Counted from the stretch's first letter, positions 1 to 28,800 are shown. The stretch is 34,389 nucleotides of DNA from Bdellovibrionales bacterium (GCA_043732445.1 JAYTHQ010000190.1:1-34389); one strand, 5' to 3'. Numbers and translations: made by a program. Notes: generated from the letters alone by a model not told the origin.

Positions 1-612
1 GTTGGTTCAGCGGTCACGATTGCGATGTGGTCGGTTCCGAAATTCATTATCAGTTTTTTTTGGGATAAGCGTTGCACCGCTTTCGTCACGCAAATGGTCG
101 ACGGCATGACTTTGATGGCGAACGGCGTGAAGGCCGGACTCTCCGTTCAGCAGTGCATGGAGCGGATCCAGGAAAATATGCCAAACCCGATCAGCCAAGA
201 GTTTGGTCTAGTTCTTTCACAAATGCGACTCGGCCGCGGCATGTCCGAGGCTCTCAACGATCTTGGTACGCGCCTTCCTCGACCCGACGTTCAGATGTTC
301 GTCACGAGCGTAAATATTTTGAGCGAGACCGGCGGTAACATGGCAGAAACATTCCAGACCATCACGTATACGATTCGTGAACGGCAAAAAATCGAAAAGA
401 AAATTGAAGCGATGACCGCACAAGGCGTCGCGCAAGGCGTGATCATCACACTCATTCCTTTTGCCCTTTTGGTCGTCTTCTTCATCGTGGACCCTACTTA
501 TGTCCAGCCGCTCTTCACCACGACCCTCGGACTCATTGCCCTCTTCGTCATGCTAGCCCTGCAAACTATCGGTGGCTTGATGATCAGGAAAGTTGTTAAA
601 ATCAACGTGTAA
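1..612 (+). CDS. Tad/Flp pilus assembly platform protein (TadB/TadC, T2SS-F family), 5'-truncated by the window edge
   Basis: The frame is open from base 1, with no stop before the first ATG at 25. The translation has T2SS-F-like segments (GGNMAETFQTITYTIRERQKIEKKIEAMTAQG) followed by C-terminal TM helices. Stop TAA at 610-612. Confidence 0.8.
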   Translation, partial: VGSAVTIAMWSVPKFIISFFWDKRCTAFVTQMVDGMTLMANGVKAGLSVQQCMERIQENMPNPISQEFGLVLSQMRLGRGMSEALNDLGTRLPRPDVQMFVTSVNILSETGGNMAETFQTITYTIRERQKIEKKIEAMTAQGVAQGVIITLIPFALLVVFFIVDPTYVQPLFTTTLGLIALFVMLALQTIGGLMIRKVVKINV

Positions 613-637
613 GGCAAAGAAGAGAAGGAGTTTTTCG

Positions 638-2311
638 ATGCAGCGTTTATTGCTGATCTCGCTTTTATTTTTGGCAACGTTGATCCCGCAAAAGGGACAG
701 GCGGTTGTCGACATGAAGAACGCAAACTACAGCGACTCATGGTTAGATCTTTCGTTCAACGGCAGCGGTTACGCACTTCGCGTGCAACGCTTCTACAACA
801 GCCGTTCGATTTTCTCAGGCATCTTTGGCTTCGGCTGGTGCTCAGAATTCGAAACGAATATCGAGAAAACTCCCGAAGGCCGCTTGAAACTCGTTGAGTG
901 CGGAGCCGGTCAGGAGACCATCTACTCGCCGGCAAAGTTCGATGCGAAAAGCATGGATCGGTTAATCGATCAGCTGATTGCGCACTACAAAAAATCAACT
1001 CCCGGCGCGACTGAAACGGGCGCAACGACTTTGCGCGAGCAGCTTCACAACTCCGCGGATCTTCGCAGCGAGTGGGCGAAGCACGCTGGCATCGCGATTC
1101 CCGACGTAAAGAAGAACGTCGTCTACTCTGCCGACAATCTTGAAGTCGAAAAGATCGTTTTCGATGGCACGAATTACGTTCGGTCCCTCGCTGATGGAAC
1201 CGCTCAACGCTTCGATGCGAGTGGCCACCTAGTGCTGATGAACGACAAAAACGGCAATAACTTGAAGCTGTCTTATGCCAACGACACGCTCCACGAGATC
1301 GTCGACAACACCGGCAAAAAGCTCACGTTTACGTTTAATCAAAACAAACGCGTGAAAGACATTACCGGCCCAGGCGGCGCGAAGGCTGAATATAAATATA
1401 AGGGCGAGGATCTCGTCGACGTTCGCAATATGTGGAAAAACAAGTACACGTACGATTACGACGAAACGCACAACCTCACGAAAATTAATTTTCCCGATGG
1501 AACATTCAAGGCACTCACCTACAATCAGAAACAAGATTGGGTGACGTCGTTCACGGATCGCGCTGTGGGCGGACCGGCTTGCGTGGAGACTTACAAGTAC
1601 GAAGTAAACAAGAACGATCCGAAGAATAACTTCTGGTCGACGGCTCTCAAAAAGTGCGGCGGCGAAGTGAAAAATGACGCTCGCTTTGAGTTCTGGCACA
1701 AAACCCGCGCCGACGGAAAAAAGTATCTCGCGCGTGTTTTAACAAAAACTCTTTCGAATACTCTGGACGTGACTTACCACCCTGACCTCGGTCGTCCAAC
1801 GTCGGTGAAAAAAGACGGCGTCGTTACGACGTTTGATTATTATCCAAACGGCCTTGTTCGCGAGAAGACGACTCCGAACATGCGTCTCGCGTTTGAGTAC
1901 AAAAACGATTTCAACAAAGTTTCGAAGGTAGCGACAGACTTCCTCGATGCGAAAGGAAAAGTCGTTCGTAAACGCCAAACAGATTTCACTTACGATCCGA
2001 AAGCGAATTTGGTCGCAGCCCAGAACTCCGACGGACAATCAGTGAAGCTGACGTACGACGGCCGCGGTCGCATCGCGACTATTTTAGATCAGGCGAAAAA
2101 AGAAGTCCTCGTGAAGTGGGATGAAAAAACCGGCAAGCCTGCGCAGATCACCCGCCCCGGCGTCGGAACAATTAAACTCACGTACAAAGCGAGCGGCGAC
2201 ATCAATAAAGTCGATAGCCCAGACGGCCCGACAGTTGCGAGCCAGATCGCAGTTAGCTTCAATAATCTTTTAGACATCATCGCCCCGGCGACGTCTGAAT
2301 TGAACATGTAA
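638..2311 (+). CDS. exported YD/RHS-repeat protein (557 aa) with no recognisable C-terminal toxin
   Basis: ORF 593..2311. Preferred start is ATG 638, preceded by GGAG at 627-630. Sec signal MQRLLLISLLFLATLIPQKGQA. YD repeats present (YTYDYDETHNLTKINFPDG, FTYDPKANLVAAQNSDG, LTYDGRGRIATILD). Confidence 0.85.
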   Translation: MQRLLLISLLFLATLIPQKGQAVVDMKNANYSDSWLDLSFNGSGYALRVQRFYNSRSIFSGIFGFGWCSEFETNIEKTPEGRLKLVECGAGQETIYSPAKFDAKSMDRLIDQLIAHYKKSTPGATETGATTLREQLHNSADLRSEWAKHAGIAIPDVKKNVVYSADNLEVEKIVFDGTNYVRSLADGTAQRFDASGHLVLMNDKNGNNLKLSYANDTLHEIVDNTGKKLTFTFNQNKRVKDITGPGGAKAEYKYKGEDLVDVRNMWKNKYTYDYDETHNLTKINFPDGTFKALTYNQKQDWVTSFTDRAVGGPACVETYKYEVNKNDPKNNFWSTALKKCGGEVKNDARFEFWHKTRADGKKYLARVLTKTLSNTLDVTYHPDLGRPTSVKKDGVVTTFDYYPNGLVREKTTPNMRLAFEYKNDFNKVSKVATDFLDAKGKVVRKRQTDFTYDPKANLVAAQNSDGQSVKLTYDGRGRIATILDQAKKEVLVKWDEKTGKPAQITRPGVGTIKLTYKASGDINKVDSPDGPTVASQIAVSFNNLLDIIAPATSELNM

Positions 2312-8309: not shown

Positions 8310-9980
<1,671 letters not shown>

Positions 9981-10028
9981 TTAGTAAATATTTTTATTTT
10001 AAATACAAAAAAAAGATTTCAGATCAGT

Positions 10029-10334
10029 TCAGTTGAAAACGCCGAGAACGTCTTCTTCTTTGATCATCAAGAATTCTTGGCCATCGAGTTTCAAGTCAGT
10101 TCCGCCGTATTTCGAGAACAAAACTTTATCGCCGACTTTCACTTCGAGCGGCAAAACTTTGCCGTCTTCGAGGATGCGGCCTTTACCCGTGGCGACGACT
10201 TCGCCGCGCTGAGGTTTTTCTTTTGCGGTATCAGGAATAATCAAACCGCCTGCAGTTTTCTCTTCTTCAGCCATGCGGCGAACAAGAATGCGATCGTGAA
10301 GTGGGCGGACTTTCAGGTCCGAAGACTTAGCCAT
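10029..10334 (-). CDS. groS: co-chaperonin GroES (Cpn10)
   Basis: 101 aa: [14 protein letters not shown]...[26 protein letters not shown]. It lies 66 nt upstream of groEL. Confidence 0.98.
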
Positions 10335-10367
10335 TGAGAGGAACCTCCATAAGAGTTTTGAGAACCC

Positions 10368-10395
10368 AATATGAAGTCCCTCAAGCGGGAGTCAA
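10368..10395 (-). promoter_or_regulatory. candidate groES-groEL promoter
   Basis: The minus strand reads cCTTGACT-N16-CATATT, which also fits a sigma-32-like CTTGA..N13..CTTCATAT. GGAGG SD at 10344-10348. No CIRCE inverted repeat is seen. Confidence 0.35.
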
Positions 10396-10451
10396 GGCGA
10401 TGCGGCCGATTTTTCTAGAAAGGAGCTCCGTCGAGGCCCGAGCGCCTCGCG

Positions 10452-10928
10452 TCAATCTCGTAAACGAGTCGGTTTTGCCTGGCTAGAAGGGGCTGCCAAG
10501 AGCGGAAGCGAGCTCTCTGACACTTGAGAGCCAGCTGAGAGCTGTTTTTGGTAAGCCATCATCAGGTCCGCGGTTTCTTCGGCCGTTAGCTTTTTCGCGG
10601 CGTCCAAGAACGACGAACGGTCCTTTAGCTGGCTTACGTAAAGAGTAAAGTAGTCACTAATTGTTAGCTCTTGAGCGATCTCAACGTTGAATTGTGCCTG
10701 CTGGAGCTTCTGATCGCCTCGGCCAAACTTCGACGGCGGGGCTTTCATGGGCGCCTGGAGATCGGCCTGAAGTTTGTCGAGATTTTTGCGCGCCTCTTCG
10801 ACTCGGGCGCTTTTCCAACCCTGAAAGCCTGAGATTCCAGAAGAGTTAATCTCCGCGTGCGCCGACGTCATCGACGTGTTGGTTGTCAAAAGTGCCGCCA
10901 AAAGTAAAAGAGCGAACGCGCGTTTCAT
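10452..10928 (-). CDS. exported hypothetical protein (158 aa)
   Basis: Signal peptide MKRAFALLLLAALLTTNTSMTSAHA. Predicted helical, with no recognisable domain. Confidence 0.6.
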   Translation of the reverse strand: MKRAFALLLLAALLTTNTSMTSAHAEINSSGISGFQGWKSARVEEARKNLDKLQADLQAPMKAPPSKFGRGDQKLQQAQFNVEIAQELTISDYFTLYVSQLKDRSSFLDAAKKLTAEETADLMMAYQKQLSAGSQVSESSLPLLAAPSSQAKPTRLRD

Positions 10929-11087
10929 CGATTGTTATTATATCAATGTTGATGCCACCCGGGAACCGTTGCCTATTTGTTTCCACGCCATTCAGGCGAC
11001 CATTTTGGTGAAAACCAGAGCCGCGATTGAGCCCCCGAAGCTAGGCCCTCCGTTTCCGGAGTTGACGGGCTCGGAGAATTCCCCGAC

Positions 11088-11948
11088 ATGTATGCGATGC
11101 CACTCAAAGTCGCTGCCGTTCAATATCCGCTCGCTGAAGGCCTCAAGGTCGATACGTTCTATGCGAAGATCGGGGCCTACTTGGCCGAAGCTGCGCAAGC
11201 GGGCGCGGAGCTCGTCGTTTTCCCGGAGCTCATCACTCTCGAGTTGGTCGATTGGCAGTCGCCAATCAGTGACGTCGACCAGCTGATCGCGATCGCAAAA
11301 GATTTTACGCCGGCCTACTTTGAATGGCTCACCGTCCAAGCGAAGAGTTTGAATATCGCAATTCTTGGCGGCACGTCGCCACGAGCAGTAGGCGATGCAA
11401 TCTTAAACACATCGCCTTTGGCATTCGCCGACGGAACACTGATCATGCAAGATAAACTCTTCCTCACACCCGACGAGAAGGCTTGGGGCTGGACTGGTGG
11501 AGACACTCTCCGGGTGTTTGAAGCCGCTTGGGGTAAAACCGTGATCGCGATTTGTTTCGATTGCGAGTTCCCGCTCGTTTCGGGATTACTCGCGAGCGAA
11601 CGTCCCGACATGATTCTTGTGCCGTCTTGGACCTCAACACATTCCGGATTAAACCGGGTTGATTTTACCGCGCGCGCTCGCGCGGTCGAACACTTCGCTT
11701 ACGTGGTGAAGACAGGAACGGTCCCTGATTTGAAATCGACTCTGCCTCATTACGGACAGGCGAGCCTTCATACTCCGCAAGAAAGTGGTTTTCCAGTGAA
11801 GCCGAATGAGGGCTACCTCAACGAACCCGGTCTCGTTTACGGTGAGCTCGATCTCGAATATTTAAGAGAAAAAAAATTAACGTCGGGCTATTACCCGAGC
11901 CATGAGCAGAGCCTTCGCGCGAAACCCGTTCTGCTCGCGCGAGGCTAG
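11088..11948 (+). CDS. carbon-nitrogen hydrolase (nitrilase superfamily), cytoplasmic paralog A
   Basis: Glu-Lys-Cys triad context: VVFPELITLE, MQDKLFLTPDE, ICFDCEFP. No signal peptide. Confidence 0.85.
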   Translation: MYAMPLKVAAVQYPLAEGLKVDTFYAKIGAYLAEAAQAGAELVVFPELITLELVDWQSPISDVDQLIAIAKDFTPAYFEWLTVQAKSLNIAILGGTSPRAVGDAILNTSPLAFADGTLIMQDKLFLTPDEKAWGWTGGDTLRVFEAAWGKTVIAICFDCEFPLVSGLLASERPDMILVPSWTSTHSGLNRVDFTARARAVEHFAYVVKTGTVPDLKSTLPHYGQASLHTPQESGFPVKPNEGYLNEPGLVYGELDLEYLREKKLTSGYYPSHEQSLRAKPVLLARG

Positions 11949-17330: not shown

Positions 17331-17660
17331 ATGAGTCGCATCGCCAGTTTAAATTTTTTGATCTTTATGGCGCTCGCTTTTGCAGCACCATTCTTCACAT
17401 CTTCAATTTCACAGGCCAAACCTACTCGGGCCAAAACCGCACACGCCAAGGCGCATTCAAAAAACGCTCACCAAAAGGCCCACGCTAAAAGCACTTCTCG
17501 CAAACATGCGGCAGCCTCAAAGGAGCCGTTAAATCCTGAACCGATTGACCGCACACCGGCTAACGCGGCAATCCCGGCAACCGGCTACAAGCGCGCAGCA
17601 CTCTACATGGCCAAACACGACGGCAAAAAGTCAAAAAAGAAGAAGAAGCACACCGCTTAG
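17331..17660 (+). CDS. small exported Lys/His/Ala-rich basic protein
   Basis: AGGAG SD. Signal MSRIASLNFLIFMALAFAAPFFTSSISQA. AHAKAHSKNAHQKAHAKS repeat and a KKSKKKKKH tail. Confidence 0.6.
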   Translation: MSRIASLNFLIFMALAFAAPFFTSSISQAKPTRAKTAHAKAHSKNAHQKAHAKSTSRKHAAASKEPLNPEPIDRTPANAAIPATGYKRAALYMAKHDGKKSKKKKKHTA

Positions 17661-17939
17661 GCTTGGCGCCAATTTGGAGCCTGCTCCCCAAGCCAGACCT
17701 CGGCACGGAGCCGCAATTGGGCCTAGATTTTTACCGATTTTCTCAGCAAATCAGATTTTGATTTAAGACATTCGCCCAATATTTTCTCAGCCGCGCTAAA
17801 ACTGAGCTGCGCCGTTCAATTCCCGTCTTTTTTACAAAACCGTTTAATGTTTGGTCAGATTGTGGGCCCGCTGATCTCTGCGAGCAAAGTGGCCCTCGGC
17901 TTGCTCCTTTTCTGCCTAATGGTAGAAATAGGAGTGTGT

Positions 17940-19022
17940 ATGCGGCTTAGTAAATTGCCGACGATTTTGGCGTCCGTCTTTACGATGGCCATGACTTCGT
18001 CTGTTTCGTCTGCCGAGCCGGGCACGTGTAAAAATATGTTTAGTCAGTCAAAGTACACGAAAATTCGCAGCGAAGTTCGCGAGTTCAAGTTTGATCTGCC
18101 GGGCCTTAAAATCGCGAGCGTGACCGATCAGTCACTTTCGACCGGTGCCACACTTTTTCTTTTACCAGCGCATTCAACCGCTAACTACGACGCTCGCGGA
18201 GGCTCGGTTGCCGCGATTGAGACCACTCTTCTTGATGAATCATCCTACAGCAACGAAATCGACGGTATTCTCTTCGCCGGCGGCTCCACCATGGGTCTTG
18301 AAGCGACTCAAGGAGTTCGTCGCCGGTTATTTAAAGAGCGGGCCGGAAAAGCCGCCGATTTTGACTTTATTCCATCGATTCCAGGTGCTGTCGTGTACGA
18401 CTACGGTAACCGTATTGAGCCGTCACAGAAGAAATTAAACTTTCCCGATATCAAGTTGGGCGAGGCTGCATTTGATCAGGCGAAAGAAAATTCCATCCTT
18501 ATGGGCCGCGTCGGGGCAGGAACGTCGACGACCGGAAGTAAAATTACTGAGCCGGTTTGGGGCGGACAAGGGGCCGCGTTTCGCGAGATTAAATTTGCTG
18601 ACGGCTTCTCTTTCAAAGTTTTCACGGCCGTCGTCGTTAATGCCCACGGCGAGATTCATTTGCCAGAGGGTATTGTCTTGGACAAGGCGACTCTTAAAAA
18701 ATTACGCGAACAACCTCGCGTCCGCGCAACACGAAAAAATACGACACTCTCGATTGTCATCACTGACGTCTCTTTAGATCGTAGCCAACTGAAACGGCTC
18801 GCGAATATGGTTCACACCGGCATGGCCGCGGTTATTCGCCCGTTCCACTCTTATACTGACGGCGACATATTATTCGCGGTGAGCATGCATCAAAAACAAA
18901 TGCCGACGGAAGGCGCTTACGAGCGCGAAGAAGTCTTGCAGTTGAAAGCGTCTGAGGCGATGAACGAAGCCATCGTAAAGTCAGTCATGATATCTAACGG
19001 CGTTATTCAGAAAGCGCCGTAA
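17940..19022 (+). CDS. exported S58/DmpA (P1) family peptidase/amidase
   Basis: ATG 17940 follows GGAG at 17931-17934. Signal MRLSKLPTILASVFTMAMTSSVSSA. Family hallmark KNTTLSIVITDVSLDRSQLKRLANMVHTGMAAVIRPFHSYTDGDILFAVS. Confidence 0.8.
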   Translation: MRLSKLPTILASVFTMAMTSSVSSAEPGTCKNMFSQSKYTKIRSEVREFKFDLPGLKIASVTDQSLSTGATLFLLPAHSTANYDARGGSVAAIETTLLDESSYSNEIDGILFAGGSTMGLEATQGVRRRLFKERAGKAADFDFIPSIPGAVVYDYGNRIEPSQKKLNFPDIKLGEAAFDQAKENSILMGRVGAGTSTTGSKITEPVWGGQGAAFREIKFADGFSFKVFTAVVVNAHGEIHLPEGIVLDKATLKKLREQPRVRATRKNTTLSIVITDVSLDRSQLKRLANMVHTGMAAVIRPFHSYTDGDILFAVSMHQKQMPTEGAYEREEVLQLKASEAMNEAIVKSVMISNGVIQKAP

Positions 19023-19027
19023 AAAAT

Positions 19028-20014
19028 ATGGCGCGTGCGTTCGTTCTGATTTTTTCTATTTTGATCACCGCCCTTCAGAGCGCGTCTGCGGTGGCCGCAA
19101 GCCGTGTCTGCAGTGAAGTTTTCAAAGAGGGAGCAGTTGTCATGGACAGTCTTCGAGTTGCCGCCGTTCAATATCCGCAGGGCGAAGGTAAAACCTTCGA
19201 ATCGTTTATCGCAAAAGTCGAAGGCTATTTAATAGAAGCTAAAGAGAAGAACGCACAGCTCATCGTTTTTCCTGAGTTGATCACTCTCGAGCTAGTCGAT
19301 TTAAAAAGTAAGATCCCAGAGAAAAATCAGCTCGCTGCGATCGCTGACGAAGTCACGCCAAGGTATATCGCCTGGCTCAAGGATTCAGCAAAACGGTTTA
19401 ATATCGCGATTATGGGGGGCACAACTCCTCGTCGCGTCGGACTCTTGATCAAAAACACCGCCATCTTGGCGATGGCAGACGGTAAAACTGTCATGCAAGA
19501 TAAGATATTTTTAACTCCCGACGAAAAAGCGTGGGGTTGGTCACCCGGTGAATCACTCGAGGTCTTCAGCTCGCCGTGGGGCTCAACTGTTATCACGACC
19601 TGTTTTGACTGCGAATTTCCGATGGTCTCCGAGGGGCTTGTGAACGCTCGTCCAGATCTTATTCTCGTTCCAAGTTGGACGAGCTCCCTCTCAGGATTAA
19701 ATCGAGTTGATTGGACAGCCAAGTCGAGAGCCGTTGAACATTACGCCTTCGTCATTAAGACCGGAACGATTCCAGATCCAAGTTCGCAACAGAGTCATTT
19801 CGGACGTGCCAGCATTATCGGACCGCAAGACACCGGCTTTTCCACAGAAATAATCGAAGGTGAACTGAATAAGTCACAAATCATCATCGGCGATTTAGAT
19901 CTCGCCCAGCAGCGAAAGCAGAAGTCAGTTTCTGGCTATTATCCAGGCCATGAACAGCAGCAGCGCCGTACTCCTTTTAGCGTCCAAACAAAATATCCGT
20001 GGAAGACTCCATGA
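19028..20014 (+). CDS. exported carbon-nitrogen hydrolase (nitrilase superfamily), paralog B
   Basis: Starts 5 nt after the S58 gene. Signal MARAFVLIFSILITALQSASAVAA. Triad context FPELITLE, MQDKIFLTPDE, TCFDCEFP. Long runs are identical to paralog A. Confidence 0.85.
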   Translation: MARAFVLIFSILITALQSASAVAASRVCSEVFKEGAVVMDSLRVAAVQYPQGEGKTFESFIAKVEGYLIEAKEKNAQLIVFPELITLELVDLKSKIPEKNQLAAIADEVTPRYIAWLKDSAKRFNIAIMGGTTPRRVGLLIKNTAILAMADGKTVMQDKIFLTPDEKAWGWSPGESLEVFSSPWGSTVITTCFDCEFPMVSEGLVNARPDLILVPSWTSSLSGLNRVDWTAKSRAVEHYAFVIKTGTIPDPSSQQSHFGRASIIGPQDTGFSTEIIEGELNKSQIIIGDLDLAQQRKQKSVSGYYPGHEQQQRRTPFSVQTKYPWKTP

Positions 20015-21459
20015 AAAATAATTTTTCAACACGACTCACTCTGATTCCGGCTCTTCTCTGCGTAAACCTATTTGCGACGGTATTCGTCTCAACGGCTCGA
20101 GCAGAAACAACGGCTGGAACTTGCTACGGAATTTTCGATTCCGTTCAGGCACCCGATTTGGTCAGAAACTTACCTCCCAACCGTTTTCAATATTCATACG
20201 AGTCAGAATTTACGTTTGATGAGGCCGGCGCTCTATTGAGGGACTATGCACCGCTCCCGTCGGTTATTCCGCGCGCCACGTGGCATGCGATGAGTGACAG
20301 CGAAAAAATCTCGTGGCTCAAGCGTACATTCTCAAATCGACCAGAATACGCTACAGATGCTGGTCTTTACCTAGAACATCACGTAGACGGCATGCCCTCA
20401 CAACTGATTGTCGACTCGACCGGAAATCTCGAAATTGTTGTCGATCCACCACAAGCGACATATTTCGAATGGGAGAAAATCGTTGAAACTGTCGTCTCTC
20501 GCTACGGAGTCGGTTCGCAGCAAGCGATGGTATCGAAGGCCCGCAGCGAAGGCTTTTCCATTTCGAAGTCAGTCGCTCAATCAGTGAGGGAGAATCTCGG
20601 CTGGCTCGTTTACACAAATCTGTTCGATACAATCACAAAACTAGAATCCGGTGCCGAGAGATTTAAAAAAGATCAAACAAAATTGGTGGCGCAAAGCTTC
20701 GATCACCCTTTTCTTGGCCCGATGACAAAAATCAAGCGCGACTCACTTGAAGGCTACCTCAAGGCGAACGCCCGTCTGGAAAACTACGATGAGGATTCGA
20801 AACACTTTGTCAGAAAGAGCGACGCCTCGTTTAAATACACTGGCGGACCTTCTTATCGTCCTGACATTGCAGGACCAAATCGTTGGTCCTGGGAAATTAG
20901 AAATGCACACCGGGATCTCGACGATCTGAAACATAAAGTCCTACGCGATGTCGTTGCGCACGCGTCTGGTCTTGCTCCGTATGTGGCGTTCGCTGACGTG
21001 CCGGCGTTTGATAGTGTCGAGACTTTTGAAAGGCTGCCGGCCGAACTACAGACGACTTTAAAACGTCTCTTCCCCACAAAGGCAGATCCACGTTTTAGTT
21101 ATAATGAGAAAGAGCGAACGGCTCTTGAGACGTTCAGAAATTTCTCTCTCCCGTATGCCGATTTTCAAATTCTCGTAAAAGTGTTGGCGTCGAATGCGAC
21201 CGACGCAAACTCTTTAATTTTAAAAACTCGGCGCGCAAGGCTCAACTATGGTCGGGCGCTTGCCACGATCAGTTCAAAACTGAAAGCGGGCACTTTGACC
21301 GACCAACAGGCACGCGCACAAGTCATGGGTCATCTCGCTGTCTGGTCTGTCTCTTCGGGTCTCGCTTCTGCGTTTGAAGTCAAAGCTCGCGATTTGAAGC
21401 ACGATCCGCGCTTCACGGATGACGGTGGACCTGTGAAAAGCGCAGCGAATCTAAAATAA
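20011..21459 (+). CDS. exported hypothetical protein (482 aa) with glutamine-synthetase/amidoligase-like strand motifs
   Basis: ATGA overlap with the upstream stop. Signal MKNNFSTRLTLIPALLCVNLFATVFVSTARA. Motifs YSYESEFTF, DSTGNLEIVVDP and WSWEIRNAHRD. Confidence 0.6.
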   Translation: MKNNFSTRLTLIPALLCVNLFATVFVSTARAETTAGTCYGIFDSVQAPDLVRNLPPNRFQYSYESEFTFDEAGALLRDYAPLPSVIPRATWHAMSDSEKISWLKRTFSNRPEYATDAGLYLEHHVDGMPSQLIVDSTGNLEIVVDPPQATYFEWEKIVETVVSRYGVGSQQAMVSKARSEGFSISKSVAQSVRENLGWLVYTNLFDTITKLESGAERFKKDQTKLVAQSFDHPFLGPMTKIKRDSLEGYLKANARLENYDEDSKHFVRKSDASFKYTGGPSYRPDIAGPNRWSWEIRNAHRDLDDLKHKVLRDVVAHASGLAPYVAFADVPAFDSVETFERLPAELQTTLKRLFPTKADPRFSYNEKERTALETFRNFSLPYADFQILVKVLASNATDANSLILKTRRARLNYGRALATISSKLKAGTLTDQQARAQVMGHLAVWSVSSGLASAFEVKARDLKHDPRFTDDGGPVKSAANLK

Positions 21460-21496
21460 TATTAATTTTAATGATTTTATCCAACCAAGGATTTTT

Positions 21497-22987
21497 ATGA
21501 AAACGTCGACAGCCTCATACTTAAGAACACGGATCATGCCAGCGGTGCTGTTGCCGGCTCTCTTGGTCATGCAAGCACCGACGTCCGCTTTTGCGAACAC
21601 AAATATTTGTAGTTCGATTTTTGATCCGCACATCATCAGCGCATCGGCGGTTCGAGTCAAATCACAAGCGGCGGCGGCTTATGTGAGTCCTGCGGTAGAA
21701 GCCTACAACGTTTTAAAAAATCTATATGTGCCGGCTGGTACGGGTCTCGTAAAACCAATGATGGCTTTACTCAACGACGAGGCGCTCTCGAGTTTTCATA
21801 CAACACTAAAAGAGATTGCGACGACACTCCAGAAAAACGTAACCCTTTCAGTGACATCAACAAAAGCTGATTTTATGAATGCTCTCGTTGTTGCGACCGA
21901 AACTGAATTGACGAAAACAATGCCCGCTTCGGTTGCGGGTCAGCGCGCAGAACTTTTACGCGATCCGTCGCTGAATAAAGCAGAGTTGATGAAAGCCCTA
22001 GGTCAACTCTCGTCTTCAGAAAGTCTCGCGGCGTTGATCGGTCCGAACGGCATTCATGATGTTTCGTCGGATTCGTTGGTCGGACGTTACTTAAGTCTTT
22101 CTCAAGCCGCAGGTAAAACACCAACAACTCTTGTCAGCGAGTTCTCGAAAGGCCCTGGCTATGAGGGACGCGGCGGAGAAAAGCTTTTTATTTCAGTTGA
22201 CCAAACAACGCTTGCGGCAGCCAACGCCGCGTTCAACAGTAATCCGAATTTATTAATGCATAACCATACGCCCGGCCAAGGAACGTTGCACATGCTCTAC
22301 GACGCTAAAGACGTGAGCTATTCGTCGTTTGGGGGTGCTTCGGCTTTAACTTCACAACAAAATACAATTGTTCCTATGATTGTTTTGAGCAGCATTGAAG
22401 CTAGCAACGCGAAAAACTATTTCGCGCTGGGAACGCTGCAGAAATCATACGCTAAATATCCGTGGGGTTTCAAAAATCAATCGGCAGGCGCTGATGAAAC
22501 GTCATATTGCCGCGCTGGTGGTTATGGAAGCTGCACCCATTGGATCGGCGAGATGTCTCTCGGTCAAAAGTTTGTGTCAGACTACGCATTTCCAGGAAAC
22601 ATTGGAGATGACCCTTACGGACACCCTGAGCGCGGAGCCGACGGCGACGCCACCGGCGCATTGCGAGTGGGGCCGGTCGGAACTTACACACACTTCCGCA
22701 GCAGCACGGTCACGCCGATCGGCGATGTCACGCGCATTGACCGTTTAGCGCATATTGTCTGGACGCAAAACCTCGGGCGTGAACAGCTGTGGAGTTTGGT
22801 CGGCGATAAGGATGGGGAAGGTCTTAAAAATGGCGAGTGGGCAAACCCGGGCTGGGTTCTTTACAGCTTCTTGTCTCGGACGTCTCAAGATCGCGTGCCG
22901 GTTGTCTTGGTGATGCGTGCCGATGCATCTGCTCCGCTGACTCAAGCCGATCTCGATGCATTGAAACCATCGATCGCGGCTCGTTAA
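21497..22987 (+). CDS. exported hypothetical protein (496 aa) with a possible papain-fold Cys/His pair
   Basis: AAGGA SD. Signal ...LLVMQAPTSAFA. GGYGSCTHWIGEM, then RLAHIVW 73 residues later. Confidence 0.6.
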   Translation: MKTSTASYLRTRIMPAVLLPALLVMQAPTSAFANTNICSSIFDPHIISASAVRVKSQAAAAYVSPAVEAYNVLKNLYVPAGTGLVKPMMALLNDEALSSFHTTLKEIATTLQKNVTLSVTSTKADFMNALVVATETELTKTMPASVAGQRAELLRDPSLNKAELMKALGQLSSSESLAALIGPNGIHDVSSDSLVGRYLSLSQAAGKTPTTLVSEFSKGPGYEGRGGEKLFISVDQTTLAAANAAFNSNPNLLMHNHTPGQGTLHMLYDAKDVSYSSFGGASALTSQQNTIVPMIVLSSIEASNAKNYFALGTLQKSYAKYPWGFKNQSAGADETSYCRAGGYGSCTHWIGEMSLGQKFVSDYAFPGNIGDDPYGHPERGADGDATGALRVGPVGTYTHFRSSTVTPIGDVTRIDRLAHIVWTQNLGREQLWSLVGDKDGEGLKNGEWANPGWVLYSFLSRTSQDRVPVVLVMRADASAPLTQADLDALKPSIAAR

Positions 22988-22989
22988 CT

Positions 22990-23796
22990 TCAAGGCTGGC
23001 TGAAAGCCCCCGCCCATTGAACTAACTCGACGGCCAATGAAAAATCGGGACCGTCGGGATCGCTCAGATGGTAATACGCTAACCAATCAGCCGGAGCTTC
23101 TGGGTGAAATGCCGTAATGGCAACCCGGCCGCGTCCAAAAGTGGCCTGGAGCGCCATGGCTTTTTTCTCGCTGTCGCCAGGAAGCAGCGGATAATAGGCA
23201 AGGACTTCTGCGTTCGAAATCGAGGCCGCATTAAAATAAGGTCCGAGCTCCCAATAGACTGATCTTGGTTTTCCACGCCATTCGATATTGACGATTTTGG
23301 CGTGTAGAAAATCAGTCAGCTCATTGTCAAAAGAATCGTAGTAGTCGCTTCGACCTGGTAAGAGCCCAAGGCCCTGCGCTTCGAAAGGGCCTTTCTCGGT
23401 CATCCATCCAAAGCGTTCGGTCGCAAGAAAACCGCCTGCGCAAAAGCCAACGTAACCACCGCCGGTACGTACGAAATCCACGATCCAAGTCTGAAGCTCG
23501 GGTGCCATCATTCGTTGTTGAACTTTGGCTTCGCCGCCTGGCTGGATCCAGACTGACGGCACTTTCGATCGGGCTAACGATACGTCATTGGGTCCTATTA
23601 GGTGAACATCGTAACCCGCAGAGACGGCAATCGCGCGAGCAGCTTCGGAGCAACCTGTAACCAGCGATGTTTGAGGGCAGCTGCCAGGACCTGAATAAAC
23701 GTAAGCGATTGGCTTGGCCTGCGCCGCGACGGAAGCGGAAGTTCCAAACATGCTTATAACAAAAACGATCGAGAAATAAAGAGAAACGCCTGACAT
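22990..23796 (-). CDS. exported class-I glutamine-amidotransferase-like (BPL_N-type) protein
   Basis: Signal MSGVSLYFSIVFVISMFGTSASVAA. Nucleophile-elbow-like GGGYVGFCAGGFLA. WIQPGGEA motif. Confidence 0.6.
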   Translation of the reverse strand: MSGVSLYFSIVFVISMFGTSASVAAQAKPIAYVYSGPGSCPQTSLVTGCSEAARAIAVSAGYDVHLIGPNDVSLARSKVPSVWIQPGGEAKVQQRMMAPELQTWIVDFVRTGGGYVGFCAGGFLATERFGWMTEKGPFEAQGLGLLPGRSDYYDSFDNELTDFLHAKIVNIEWRGKPRSVYWELGPYFNAASISNAEVLAYYPLLPGDSEKKAMALQATFGRGRVAITAFHPEAPADWLAYYHLSDPDGPDFSLAVELVQWAGAFSQP

Positions 23797-24017
23797 GAGG
23801 GCCCCTCCTCGGAGTCAGCTTCTAATCGGCGTCCCAAGGTTAACGCTAAGTCGAAGAATCACGCTATTTTTTTAATGCTCACTCTCGATTTTGACGCCGA
23901 GAATAATAAAACTTTTAAAGATGTAGATCTATTTTGCGCAAAGAATTTTTAGCATGGCTAGATGATGAAACACTCGCGTAACATCGAACATCGTCGCTCG
24001 TTTGGAAGGATTCTCTC

Positions 24018-25010
24018 TTGTTCAACATACGAAAATCGAACCTCATAAAATCGTTCGCGTTTGTTCTTACCGCATTAGCGACCTCCCTTTCTGCTGCATC
24101 TCAACCGATAGAGCCGGTCAAAGAAGTTTTCTCGCCGCCTTCGCCGGCGCACCCCGAACAGTTTATGAAGGTTGCCGTTGTTCAGTGGAACTCGGCAGGA
24201 GCTACTCCGCTCGGCGCGAGTGCTGCTGAGGCCGGGGCTTACATGGACCGAAACCGCGCGGACATGGCGGCCCGGATTCAAACGGCGGCCGCAAACGGCG
24301 CACTGTTTATTTCTCTAAGTGAGTTTGCAGTCGTCGGGTACCCCGACATTCCAAATCTTCCACCCGAAGAAGACGATTTTCGAAATCGCGATGACATTCG
24401 GCCCTTCGTCGATACGATTCCCGGCTTATCAACCCAGTATTTTTCTGCTCTAGCGAAAGCTCATAAGGTCTGGATCCAATTTGGAATGGCAGAAGTCGAG
24501 ACTGGAACAGACAAGTATTTCAACACTGCCGTCGTCATCAACGATAGCGGCGAAATCGTCGCGACCTTTCGAAAAAACTCTCTCTATCAATTAGAAAATA
24601 ACTTTCTCTCGGCCGGCTCGAAGGCGGTCACCTTCGAAGCGCCGTTTGGACGCGTAGGACTCGTGATCTGCGCCGATATTTACAATCAAACGCTCTTAAG
24701 CCAGTACCGTGCTCTCGGCGTAAATGTTCTAAGTCTGAGCACAAGCTGGGCTCAAATGAATACCGGCATGTCGGTATTTTCTTCGGCTGCGCGTTCGATG
24801 GGTGTCTATGTTCTCGCGGCGAATCAAACTTACTTTCCTGATTCTGGCGTTATCAATGCTGACGGAACTCAGCAGTCACACATTCGGCAGTCGTTAGACC
24901 AAATTGCATACGGCTATTTACCGCTGAAGAACAGAGCGGCGCCAGCACCGGCTGCGACGCCACAAGTTCCAGCTTCCACGCCGGTCTTTTTCAAAAGACC
25001 CGGCAAGTAA
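24018..25010 (+). CDS. exported carbon-nitrogen hydrolase (nitrilase superfamily), divergent paralog C
   Basis: TTG start 7 nt after GGAAGGA. Signal ...FAFVLTALATSLSAA. Triad context LSEFAVVGYP, FRKNSLYQLE, VICADIY. Confidence 0.8.
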   Translation: MFNIRKSNLIKSFAFVLTALATSLSAASQPIEPVKEVFSPPSPAHPEQFMKVAVVQWNSAGATPLGASAAEAGAYMDRNRADMAARIQTAAANGALFISLSEFAVVGYPDIPNLPPEEDDFRNRDDIRPFVDTIPGLSTQYFSALAKAHKVWIQFGMAEVETGTDKYFNTAVVINDSGEIVATFRKNSLYQLENNFLSAGSKAVTFEAPFGRVGLVICADIYNQTLLSQYRALGVNVLSLSTSWAQMNTGMSVFSSAARSMGVYVLAANQTYFPDSGVINADGTQQSHIRQSLDQIAYGYLPLKNRAAPAPAATPQVPASTPVFFKRPGK

Positions 25011-27142: not shown

Positions 27143-28450
27143 ATGAGCTTCCGTATCTCTTCACTCGGCACTCTTGCCATCGCGACTGCCGCCCTCGTTG
27201 GCTGCGCTGGCCAAGGCAATCAACCAGCGGGCTTCGGCAACGGCGAGATCAACGCCGCAAGCATCGTAGCCACCAAGTCTCTCACGCCGCCTGCGAAGGC
27301 GCAGCGCCTTGCGGATACGTCGGAGCAACTTTTGTCGGTTCAAGGTTTTGACTACGCCAATGACGTAGCTGATCTCGCTTTGGCGCAAGACCCAACGAAC
27401 GTAAAAGCACAATTCATCAAAGCTATTTTGGGTCCAATCGTCGCTCAACGCGGCATCGCGGCCCGAGTTGCTCCGTTGGCAGCTCTTGATGCGAAAACAG
27501 ACGCTGGTTACTCTGACGTACTCGTGAAAATTGACGAAGCTCCAGATTCAACTTTAAAGACTTTCATCATGGATGGGCAGCCAGACATTAAGTCAGAGGC
27601 AGACGTTCAATCGCACCTCGACGCGATGGCCGATGCGTTCGGTAAAATTCGCCAGTTTGCAAAAGACAACAAAGGCGCTCAGATCACAATGAACGGTACG
27701 GATCTTATGTACCAAGCATTGATGGATCGTCAGCACGAACTCTGCACCGTTCAATCGGTCGGCCAGTACGTCTACAAATACGTTTGTCCGTCAGAAGTTA
27801 AAATGCTCCAGACGACGATTGACCGTGGCGACCTTGAAGTCATTCAACAGTACGCAGCTGGCATGGAACTCTATATGTCGCTCTACAACTCGTATGACTT
27901 AACGGGCTCGATCAAAGTTGCTCAAGACAACGCGGGCAAAAAAGGCCAACAGGCGTCGCCTACTGACATCCTCAATCAATTACTCTCTAATCCAAAGTTC
28001 GGTACGATCCGCGCTGGCAACGGCTTCGCGAAAGTGAAAAGCCTCGGCGCAGATGCGATCACTGGTATCCGTTGGGTTATGTCGAACCAATCGAAACTTT
28101 GCCCTATGGGTCAAGAGAACGCTCACAACCGTATCGGTTCACTCGTGAACAACGGAATCTGTGTTCCATCAACTCAACAAGGCAGCATCAATCAAGGTAT
28201 TCGCAAGGTAGAAGCAGCACTTGCTGGCGGCAAGGTAGCAGTGCCGGTCACGAGTTCGACTGGTACATACCAAACGGTCATGCAACCTTCGGCGATTCTC
28301 GATCAACCGATTGCGGATCTTCACTCGCTTGCACCTGTTACGACAAATGCGTGTGGCAAAATCACTGGCCTTGCTGACTCTTCACTTGGCGGTTTGTTCC
28401 CGAACAAAGACTTGAACGCGATTATCGCGCAAGGAAGTTCGTGCCCGTAA
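27143..28450 (+). CDS. hypothetical lipoprotein (435 aa)
   Basis: AGGAG SD. Lipobox LAIATAALVGCAGQ. Several Cys pairs. No recognisable domain. Confidence 0.7.
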   Translation: MSFRISSLGTLAIATAALVGCAGQGNQPAGFGNGEINAASIVATKSLTPPAKAQRLADTSEQLLSVQGFDYANDVADLALAQDPTNVKAQFIKAILGPIVAQRGIAARVAPLAALDAKTDAGYSDVLVKIDEAPDSTLKTFIMDGQPDIKSEADVQSHLDAMADAFGKIRQFAKDNKGAQITMNGTDLMYQALMDRQHELCTVQSVGQYVYKYVCPSEVKMLQTTIDRGDLEVIQQYAAGMELYMSLYNSYDLTGSIKVAQDNAGKKGQQASPTDILNQLLSNPKFGTIRAGNGFAKVKSLGADAITGIRWVMSNQSKLCPMGQENAHNRIGSLVNNGICVPSTQQGSINQGIRKVEAALAGGKVAVPVTSSTGTYQTVMQPSAILDQPIADLHSLAPVTTNACGKITGLADSSLGGLFPNKDLNAIIAQGSSCP

Positions 28451-28800
28451 CTTCTCGACCCGCTCATTTCTTGGCCCGCATTGCGACTACGGTCGTGTGC
28501 GGGCTTTTTTGTTTCACGGCTGACGCATCGTCGAAACTCCATCACTATTCAATGGCTGAATGTGCGAAGACCTTCTGTGTTTCGGCTGCCGGTGAGGCGG
28601 CCTTTATTTCTAACTTAAGTCCGACTCTCGCCGCCGAGAACGTCTCGCTTCAGATCGCCTCTACAACGGGAACTAAAAAGACTTACCAATGCTCGTCGAT
28701 GGCTTACCTGATGGAGTCGTCAATTTTAACGTGCGACTTAGCAGGACAAAAGAAGACCCTTGTCATCGACCTCGCCAACTCCGAGTTTCATTCTTACTGA
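28441..28800 (+). CDS. small exported hypothetical protein
   Basis: GTG start overlaps the upstream gene by 10 nt, after AAGGAAG. Hydrophobic N-terminus IATTVVCGLFCFTADA. Four Cys in the mature part. Confidence 0.45.
   Translation: MPVTSRPAHFLARIATTVVCGLFCFTADASSKLHHYSMAECAKTFCVSAAGEAAFISNLSPTLAAENVSLQIASTTGTKKTYQCSSMAYLMESSILTCDLAGQKKTLVIDLANSEFHSY

Follow-up and report, generated by a model that had tools for sequence, protein, structure and literature searches.

Four adjacent genes (g1 to g4, positions 17940-22987, + strand) in a 34,389-nucleotide stretch of DNA from a Bdellovibrionales bacterium (GCA_043732445.1 JAYTHQ010000190.1:1-34389; the whole stretch is referred to here as the window) encode predicted exported proteins of four different families, each carrying the same short peptide, Cys-x-x-[I/V/M]-Phe, just after its signal peptide. 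The best explanation for this peptide, called the tag in the following, is that it is specific to this lineage and was added to the exported versions of otherwise unrelated Bdellovibrionota enzymes. Comparison of relatives supports a tag that is tied to export and not to a fold, because in the g2 family the tag follows the signal peptide and paralogs without a signal peptide are untagged. The original prediction, in which the motif was a shared, selected and export-linked feature of the proteins, stands, given its conservation in orthologs and its absence from those paralogs. The tag probably serves to tie these enzymes to each other or to route them as a group.

The g1 gene (17940-19022; 360 amino acids; predicted signal peptide 17940-18014) encodes an exported Peptidase_S58 (DmpA-type) protein with the tag CKNMF at 18027-18041, whose Cys is residue 5 of the mature protein and its only Cys. 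The product of g2 (19028-20014; 328 amino acids; predicted signal peptide 19028-19096) is an exported nitrilase-superfamily (CN_hydrolase) protein with the tag CSEVF at 19109-19123, Cys again being mature residue 5. The g3 gene (20011-21459; 482 amino acids; predicted signal peptide 20011-20103) encodes an exported protein of an uncharacterized family tagged with CYGIF at 20122-20136, where Cys is mature residue 7 and the sole Cys of the mature protein, and g4 (21497-22987; 496 amino acids; predicted signal peptide 21497-21595) encodes an exported member of a rare uncharacterized family with CSSIF at 21608-21622 and Cys at mature residue 5. After cleavage at the predicted sites, the N-termini would read EPGT-CKNMF, ASRV-CSEVF, ETTAGT-CYGIF and NTNI-CSSIF. 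The Cys codons begin at 18027, 19109, 20122 and 21608, where they had been placed at first, and in a six-frame regular-expression search of the whole 34 kb, these were the only four sites at which C..[IVLM]F fell within the mature portion of a real open reading frame (ORF). With the amino acid frequencies of the window, the chance of finding the motif in a 12-position stretch is 1.1e-3 per protein, and for four given proteins it falls to 1.3e-12.

By profile comparison, the four families are mutually unrelated. The g1 product matches Pfam PF03576 (Peptidase_S58; E 3.6e-30, 106 bits, gathering cut-off 23.9), with a segment KNTTLS that is kept in its homologs and may relate to the self-cleavage by which this family exposes its Ser/Thr nucleophile, and the g2 product matches PF00795 (CN_hydrolase; E 4.8e-18, 65.8 bits, gathering cut-off 23.2). 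For g3 and g4, nothing was found in Pfam or NCBIfam, and PDB sequence profiles gave nothing meaningful, in line with the initial assignment of one S58 protein, one nitrilase and two unknown families. Profile hidden Markov models of g3 and g4 reach the other three families only at E ~0.2-10, weak cross-matches that are probably due to the common N-termini. Signal peptides and cleavage sites were called by our own heuristic for the n-, h- and c-regions and the -3/-1 residues, not by SignalP; g1 to g4 and their homologs have a positively charged n-region, a hydrophobic core of at least nine residues and small residues at -3/-1. No RR pair, as in the Tat motif RR-x-F-L-K, is present in the N-termini MRLSKL, MARAF, MKNNFSTRL and MKTSTASYLRTRIMP.

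The tag is conserved in homologs. Relatives were examined as loci extending 10 kb to either side of a match (numbered with L, homologous proteins being numbered with P), and a metagenome scan returned 7 loci. The g4 family has 21 homologs among 5.8 billion proteins, and its N-terminal Cys is invariant in 19 of the 19 that were aligned (28-46% identity); among the 33 invariant columns, it is the sole one before residue 180. For g3, 39 homologs were found, with the tag Cys invariant in 36/36 aligned, and most of these proteins have no other Cys. The closest S58 representatives of g1 with a signal peptide are mostly tagged (CGDIF, CPILF, CSLLF, CNNVL, CEAFL), and more distant exported S58 proteins have no tag. 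The alignment of orthologs thus finds the Cys kept in all four families.

In the g2 family, the tag goes with the signal peptide. Among its 55 close homologs, the tag is present in 32/38 proteins with a signal peptide versus 0/16 without one (Fisher p = 3.5e-9), tag and signal peptide having been scored by reading; the 16 without a signal peptide start directly at the catalytic domain. The window holds a natural control of its own, a g2 paralog at 11088-11948 (+ strand; 58% identity) with neither signal peptide nor tag, and a g3 paralog in L032 (13657-14859) likewise lacks both. A logo of 87 unique N-termini shows Cys followed by any residue, then D/S/N/E, then L/V/I (82%) at +3 and F (68%) at +4, the remainder at +4 being mostly L/M/Y, so that the consensus is C-x-[D/S/N/E]-[L/V/I]-[F/L/M]. 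Upstream of the Cys, position -1 is occupied by S/A/T/Q/V/L and others and position -2 by P/N/L/S/K/G, with an Ala-rich cleavage region before them.

Across 313 kb of relatives' loci, 15/34 members of the S58, g2, g3 and g4 families with a predicted signal peptide have the strict motif after it (11 more have the Cys only), against 3/98 of all other ORFs with a signal peptide (Fisher p = 4e-8), so that the motif is enriched in the cluster families. The tag is not confined to the operon, however, as it is also found on other proteins in relatives. The three carriers outside the families are a 631-amino acid protein with a Glu_synthase flavin mononucleotide (FMN) domain by the cluster in L009 (4292-6187, - strand; tag CRELF; Pfam E 1.6e-30), a 458-amino acid unclassified protein also in L009, and a 323-amino acid protein in L018, away from the cluster, whose FDIDDN segment is HAD-like by sequence reading, with no Pfam match. 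A further tagged protein of 338 amino acids in L032 is unclassified. Export through Sec would be unusual for a flavoprotein such as the one in L009.

Tags of different families within one genome resemble each other more than tags of different genomes. Thus, L028 has CDGRMTAH in the nitrilase and CNSRMTAH in g3, L009 has CQGLF twice in different families, L020 has CGDVF in the nitrilase and CADVF in g3, L026 has CSTVL and CAAIL in different families, and L006 and L007 share C-x-x-x-[LI]-[IM]-x-L in g3 and g4. The mean BLOSUM62 score of cross-family pairs, taken over positions +1 to +7, is 8.6 in the same genome versus 1.4 in different genomes, in a hand-compiled set that includes two genomes related to each other, L006 and L007. 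When the genome labels were shuffled 5000 times within families, a difference this large never arose (p <= 2e-4). Such co-variation is expected if a single partner reads all the tags of a genome, or if the tags bind each other.

The absence of a DNA-level repeat, already claimed for the window, was reproduced: a search over the four tag sites found no repeats, and the codons surrounding the motifs agree no more often than unrelated sequence would by chance (27/84 bases identical between g2 and g4), leaving a likeness at the protein level. In L009 and L020, every synonymous site able to differ does differ, and the likeness of the tags is therefore kept by protein-level selection and not by recent gene conversion. 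A DNA repeat or recent conversion as the source of the motif was rejected on these grounds. The least probable of the readings considered is one in which the tag has no common function and reflects chance, the composition near cleavage sites, or a copied N-terminal cassette that is now drifting. It draws on the fact that the motif was defined post hoc from these very sequences, and on L028, where the RMTAH codons differ at only 2/15 bases and an old conversion is possible. The comparative data speak strongly against it; here belong the chance value of ~1e-12 in the window, an invariant Cys across deep sets of homologs at 30-50% identity, dissimilar hydrophobic cores adjoining the tag, the diverged synonymous sites of L009 and L020, and the lack of the tag in all members without a signal peptide.

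Regarding its placement, the tag Cys lies a median of 3-4 residues past the predicted signal peptidase I site, typically at mature residue 3-6 and within a range of 2-8 residues beyond an A-x-A site, and this site stands between the hydrophobic core of the signal peptide and the Cys. Between the Cys and the start of the catalytic domain lies a linker whose length ranges from 10 to 68 residues. AlphaFold2 models of g3 (mean predicted local distance difference test score, pLDDT, 88.6) and g4 (mean 82.9) have pLDDT < 50 at residues 29-46 and 21-43, respectively, and the low confidence of both models there suggests that the tag region is probably flexible; the g3 model has a four-residue helical turn at residues 39-42, right after the Cys. 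The possibility that the tag is a structural part of each domain was discarded in view of the low pLDDT, the variable linker, and the missing tag in paralogs without a signal peptide.

The Cys content of the mature proteins is one in g1, three in g2, one in g3 and three in g4. As the sole Cys of their mature proteins, the tag residues of g1 and g3 have no possible intrachain partner. This bears on the very unlikely possibility that the tag is a latency or activation element, either a redox switch or a short pro-peptide cut by a common protease. A conserved, N-terminal and probably flexible (low-confidence) segment would suit such a role, and the further conserved Cys residues of g2 and g4 could pair with the tag Cys. 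However, a second Cys is missing from g1 and from most g3 proteins, and the linker length is highly variable. S58 proteins use a Ser/Thr nucleophile and nitrilases a Cys-Glu-Lys triad, and with catalytic chemistries this different a single inhibitory mechanism is unlikely.

The homologs also clarify the relation of the tag to the lipobox (Lgt/LspA/Lnt), which is the nearest known system in form: both place an invariant Cys soon after the signal peptide of many unrelated exported proteins. In contrast to the lipobox, the tag has no [LVI][ASTVI][GAS] before its Cys, which is preceded by GT, RV, GT and NI in g1 to g4 and by a variable -1 residue across the 87 homologs, and the conserved residues lie downstream (+2 to +4) and not upstream. 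The tag Cys is found 2-8 residues past the A-x-A site and not straight after the hydrophobic core, and ordinary lipoproteins with normal lipoboxes are encoded in the same loci. The tags are thus not lipoboxes, as had been stated, an identity that was rejected because the preceding residues are unconserved and the A-x-A site intervenes. In two cases, P0102 (a g2 homolog that stands alone, with no surrounding cluster) and the g3 homolog of L012, a lipobox-like sequence replaces the tag. Two other homologs, a g4 paralog in L001 (LYSC...CEGIF) and P0060 (SLTAC...CAKIM), appear to have both, with the tag ~23-26 residues beyond the lipobox-like sequence. Since these two keep it, the tag does not appear to be simply a lipid anchor.

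The tagged genes belong to a cluster with a wider distribution. The 19 loci encoding a g4 relative all come from metagenome-assembled genomes (MAGs), most of them labeled Bdellovibrionaceae, Bdellovibrionales, Pseudobdellovibrionaceae or Bacteriovoracaceae (Bdellovibrionota), and three loci from two MAGs under the older label 'Proteobacteria bacterium'. Recurring near the g4 relatives are S58 proteins, a g2-type nitrilase, a second nitrilase, g3, a BPL_N-like protein and one to three g4 paralogs; the g4 family is often present as two or three paralogs per cluster. The S58 and g2-type nitrilase genes are fused in L006 (7615-9609) and L007 (3703-5718), with a single tag per fusion, and P0123 and P0134 are further S58-nitrilase fusions, the domain order going either way. 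Fusion argues that S58 and nitrilase act together, and, with synteny in many Bdellovibrionota MAGs, it supports a conserved functional unit formed by the families of g1 to g4.

This unit is wider than 17940-22987, to which the original prediction had limited it, because the BPL_N-like and second nitrilase families recur in the clusters of relatives. As judged from gene content, it spans ~17940-25010 of the window and takes in a BPL_N/class I glutamine-amidotransferase-like exported protein without a tag (22990-23796, - strand; Pfam PF09825, E 2.3e-17) and a second exported nitrilase-family protein, 'CN3', without a Cys tag (24018-25010, + strand; Pfam PF00795, E 2.3e-24, 86.6 bits against the gathering cut-off of 23.2). 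The idea of one functional secreted toolkit is retained as far as the conserved unit is concerned, but secretion of all its members is not universal. In L001 (11437-12333), L012 (8418-9371), L014 (6155-7054), L029 (4304-5329), L030 (13023-13982) and L032 (11481-12398), the S58 protein has no signal peptide and its neighbors are exported and tagged, so that the pathway may span two compartments in these genomes. A common action on C-N bonds, also proposed, agrees with the family membership of g1, g2 and the second nitrilase, but g3 and g4 have no family assignment.

The position of the cluster is not fixed either. The backbone of L020 is syntenic with the window (groES/groEL, TauE, PAP2, SDF, DedA, a small basic protein and an Mx1-like peptidase) and has no cluster at the site of the window's cluster. 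Instead, a tagged nitrilase (CGDVF) and a tagged g3 (CADVF) lie next to groES at 9034-11416, and the equivalent slot of the window holds the untagged paralog 11088-11948. Gene order thus shows the cluster to change its place in the genome.

Two members of the cluster, the second nitrilase and the BPL_N-like protein, are predicted to be exported in every case and are never tagged; they are candidate binders or modifiers of the tag. The BPL_N-like protein is syntenic in L001, L006 and L007 and has a conserved GPGSC-x(4-8)-C. The second nitrilase is present in almost every related cluster, and after its signal peptide a P-[IV]-x-E-[VI]-F-x-P segment is conserved that never contains Cys. This segment includes the VKEVF that had been noticed in 24018-25010 as a weaker echo of the tag; the segment is real, but it is a separate feature of this family. 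A Cys-less version of the tag was rejected for it, as it stays PIKEVFEP in L028, where the other tags became C-x-x-RMTAH. Neither g2 nor the second nitrilase reaches an NCBIfam equivalog cut-off, and the best NCBIfam matches of the latter are nitrilases and amidases, not Lnt.

These two proteins are central to a rather improbable reading in which the tag Cys undergoes a lipobox-independent modification (acylation or another adduct), perhaps after N-terminal trimming, which would anchor or alter the enzymes and which might be installed by either of them. The nitrilase superfamily includes enzymes acting on protein N-termini, Lnt and Nta1, and S58 proteins are aminopeptidases. An invariant unpaired thiol on an accessible tail near the N-terminus would be a suitable substrate, the two proteins are precisely the exported cluster members that are never tagged, and the replacement of the tag by a lipobox-like sequence in P0102 and the L012 g3 homolog points in the same direction. 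Nevertheless, the tag has no lipobox and the canonical lipoproteins of the same loci look ordinary, the A-x-A site separates hydrophobic core and Cys, and the two homologs with both elements indicate that they are not interchangeable. The S58 proteins without signal peptide in several clusters, and the NCBIfam matches of the second nitrilase, which are not to Lnt, also speak against it.

The reading favored here, although tentatively and with rather less than even confidence, is that the tag is a common handle for covalent capture, through a disulfide bond to a shared partner or between the enzymes themselves. It is preferred because of the unpaired thiol, the small and coherent set of cargo proteins, the single tag on fusion proteins, and the persistence of the tag beside a lipobox-like sequence. 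Sec export followed by signal peptidase I cleavage would leave the tag at the extreme N-terminus, on a flexible tail that a linker of variable length connects to the catalytic domain. The hydrophobic residue and Phe would form a short hydrophobic turn serving as recognition surface, the unpaired Cys would turn the contact covalent, and the disulfide handle would keep the enzymes encoded by a single cluster in one place outside the cytoplasm. In this scheme the cleavage sites, the formation of a disulfide, and both the existence and the identity of the partner are inferred.

Several points weigh against this handle. No partner or scaffold was seen in the neighborhoods examined, where nothing conserved and non-enzymatic adjoins the clusters. 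Some loci encode a single tagged protein within 10-20 kb, and there are tagged proteins away from the cluster too, as in L018. Co-variation within genomes is equally expected of a sorting signal evolving in step with the enzyme that processes it, and the position of the tag, so close to the signal-peptidase site, agrees no less well with recognition at the membrane than with docking once export is complete.

Nearly as likely as the capture handle, and to be regarded as a possible if unlikely alternative, is a new N-terminal sorting signal, read by a dedicated machine at the inner membrane or in the periplasm, that routes the enzymes beyond the periplasm to the surface, vesicles, medium or prey. 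The tag goes together with a signal peptide and keeps to the first few residues of the mature protein, and it is restricted to one phylum with predatory cultured members. Its unrelated carriers are of normally cytoplasmic types: nitrilases, the Glu_synthase FMN-domain protein, the protein with the HAD-like motif and, from weak fold hints, g3. The lineage-specific co-variation is what would be expected of signals and their enzymes, as stated for MYXO-CTERM and the enzyme that processes it (Haft, 10.1101/2023.06.07.544157). This alternative has to account for the low number of carriers (3/98 signal-peptide ORFs outside the cluster families), the lack of any candidate sorting enzyme in the neighborhoods examined, and the two lipobox-like homologs that keep the tag far from the N-terminus.

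A more specific proposal, considerably less probable, is a Cys-dependent N-terminal routing pathway of the Bdellovibrionota in which the proteins would first use Sec and would then be carried to the surface or the prey by a co-evolving machine. If true, it would be the bacterial counterpart of the host-targeting motifs PEXEL (Plasmodium) and RxLR (oomycetes), which are also short, lie a few residues past the signal peptide of many unrelated exported proteins, and belong to organisms living on or inside another cell. These motifs differ from the tag in being eukaryotic and in their sequence and chemistry, and the tag is known from genes of uncultured bacteria, which may not be predators.

The tag and its cluster match no described system, as had been supposed: neither Pfam nor NCBIfam has a model for the tag, an NCBIfam scan of the four N-termini at E <= 10 was empty, and no published description was found in the literature on Bdellovibrio signals, secretome motifs, clusters of amidoligase, nitrilase and S58 genes, and sorting signals. 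The tag is best filed among the short terminal tags common to functionally linked exported proteins, with the lipobox nearest in form, and encapsulation peptides, dockerins, C-terminal Cys signals and PEXEL/RxLR nearest in logic. Encapsulation peptides (bacterial microcompartments) and cargo-loading peptides (encapsulins) are similarly short, probably helical terminal peptides on unrelated enzymes of one cluster, with a poorly conserved linker and a lineage-specific sequence, and are missing from paralogs outside the system. However, those peptides are cytoplasmic, without signal peptide or conserved Cys, and accompanied by shell genes, whereas the carriers of the tag all have a signal peptide; no shell-protein Pfam families and no scaffold gene were seen in the cluster neighborhoods.

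Dockerins, which bind cohesins in the cellulosome, likewise gather diverse exported enzymes by means of a common added module. Contrary to the tag, which is ~5-8 residues long, N-terminal and Cys-containing, they are duplicated calcium-binding modules of ~70 residues, usually C-terminal, that attach non-covalently to a scaffoldin with repeated cohesins. No dockerin Pfam families match g1 to g4, which have no Pfam match beyond the catalytic domains. The C-terminal Cys sorting signals (MYXO-CTERM and relatives) are also short, lineage-specific signatures with an invariant Cys on unrelated exported proteins, and co-evolution with a recognizer is expected for them as well. These are C-terminal and tripartite (motif, transmembrane helix and Arg-rich end), with Rce1-like intramembrane proteases as predicted processors, whereas the tag is N-terminal and is followed by no transmembrane helix. 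The C-termini of g1 to g4 (...VIQKAP, ...YPWKTP, ...SAANLK, ...PSIAAR) have no hydrophobic helix and no NCBIfam match to such signals.

Cells use short terminal tags, among them the lipobox, LPXTG, PEP-CTERM and encapsulation peptides, to sort unrelated proteins, to anchor them or to assemble them into sets, and, to our knowledge, each new one has led to a new machine. The invariant-Cys tags that we know of are either the lipobox or C-terminal. Unlike these, the tag comes after a signal peptidase I site, and its specificity lies in residues downstream of the Cys; a dedicated machine, if found, would constitute a new system. Even a disulfide-linked enzyme complex, if true, would be an unusual mode of extracytoplasmic enzyme assembly. 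Cultured Bdellovibrionota are known for killing other bacteria and, as far as we know, the route by which the hydrolytic enzymes of these predators reach their targets is poorly understood. The tag provides a sequence handle for listing cargo, for finding its recognizer by phylogenetic profiling, and for localization with reporter fusions.

With respect to the two uncharacterized families, the g3 model gave only weak Foldseek matches to the PDB: Dop (E 0.24), the ACD domain of VgrG (E 0.63) and McsB (E 1.4), which we take to have a glutamine-synthetase-like or related kinase fold. Together with an E-x-E that is invariant near the N-terminus of the family, these hint at a glutamine-synthetase-like enzyme and serve as a lead. 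Such an enzyme would need ATP, yet g3 is predicted to be exported. For the g4 model, Foldseek returned no PDB match. The N-terminal half of this model is helical and the C-terminal half is alpha/beta; with an invariant GGYxSCTHW and a nearly invariant H-x-H in the family, g4 may represent a new enzyme fold.

The arrangement of the four genes reproduced the coordinates and spacing reported before: they lie head to tail, with a gap of 5 nucleotides between g1 and g2, an ATGA overlap between g2 and g3, and a gap of 37 nucleotides between g3 and g4. No intrinsic-terminator-like sites were found on the + strand between them and, given this and the spacing, co-transcription of g1 to g4 as an operon is plausible. 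The ATG of g1 at 17940 has an AGGAG Shine-Dalgarno sequence 6 nucleotides 5' of it, and the start of the longer ORF at 17847 has none; the starts of orthologs match the short form.

Among the remaining features of the window, the ECAKTF in 28441-28800 (+ strand), taken at first for another weak echo of the tag, has Thr in place of the hydrophobic residue of the tag, in a protein with four Cys after the predicted signal peptide, and is probably a chance resemblance; no homologs of this protein were found among the relatives' loci examined. Just 5' of g1, 17331-17660 (+ strand) encodes a small exported His/Lys-rich protein with a run of Lys at its end, which is kept at the same backbone slot in L020 (17834-18127). 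In addition, 593-2311 (+ strand) encodes an exported protein that, by sequence reading alone, has YD/RHS-type-like repeats.

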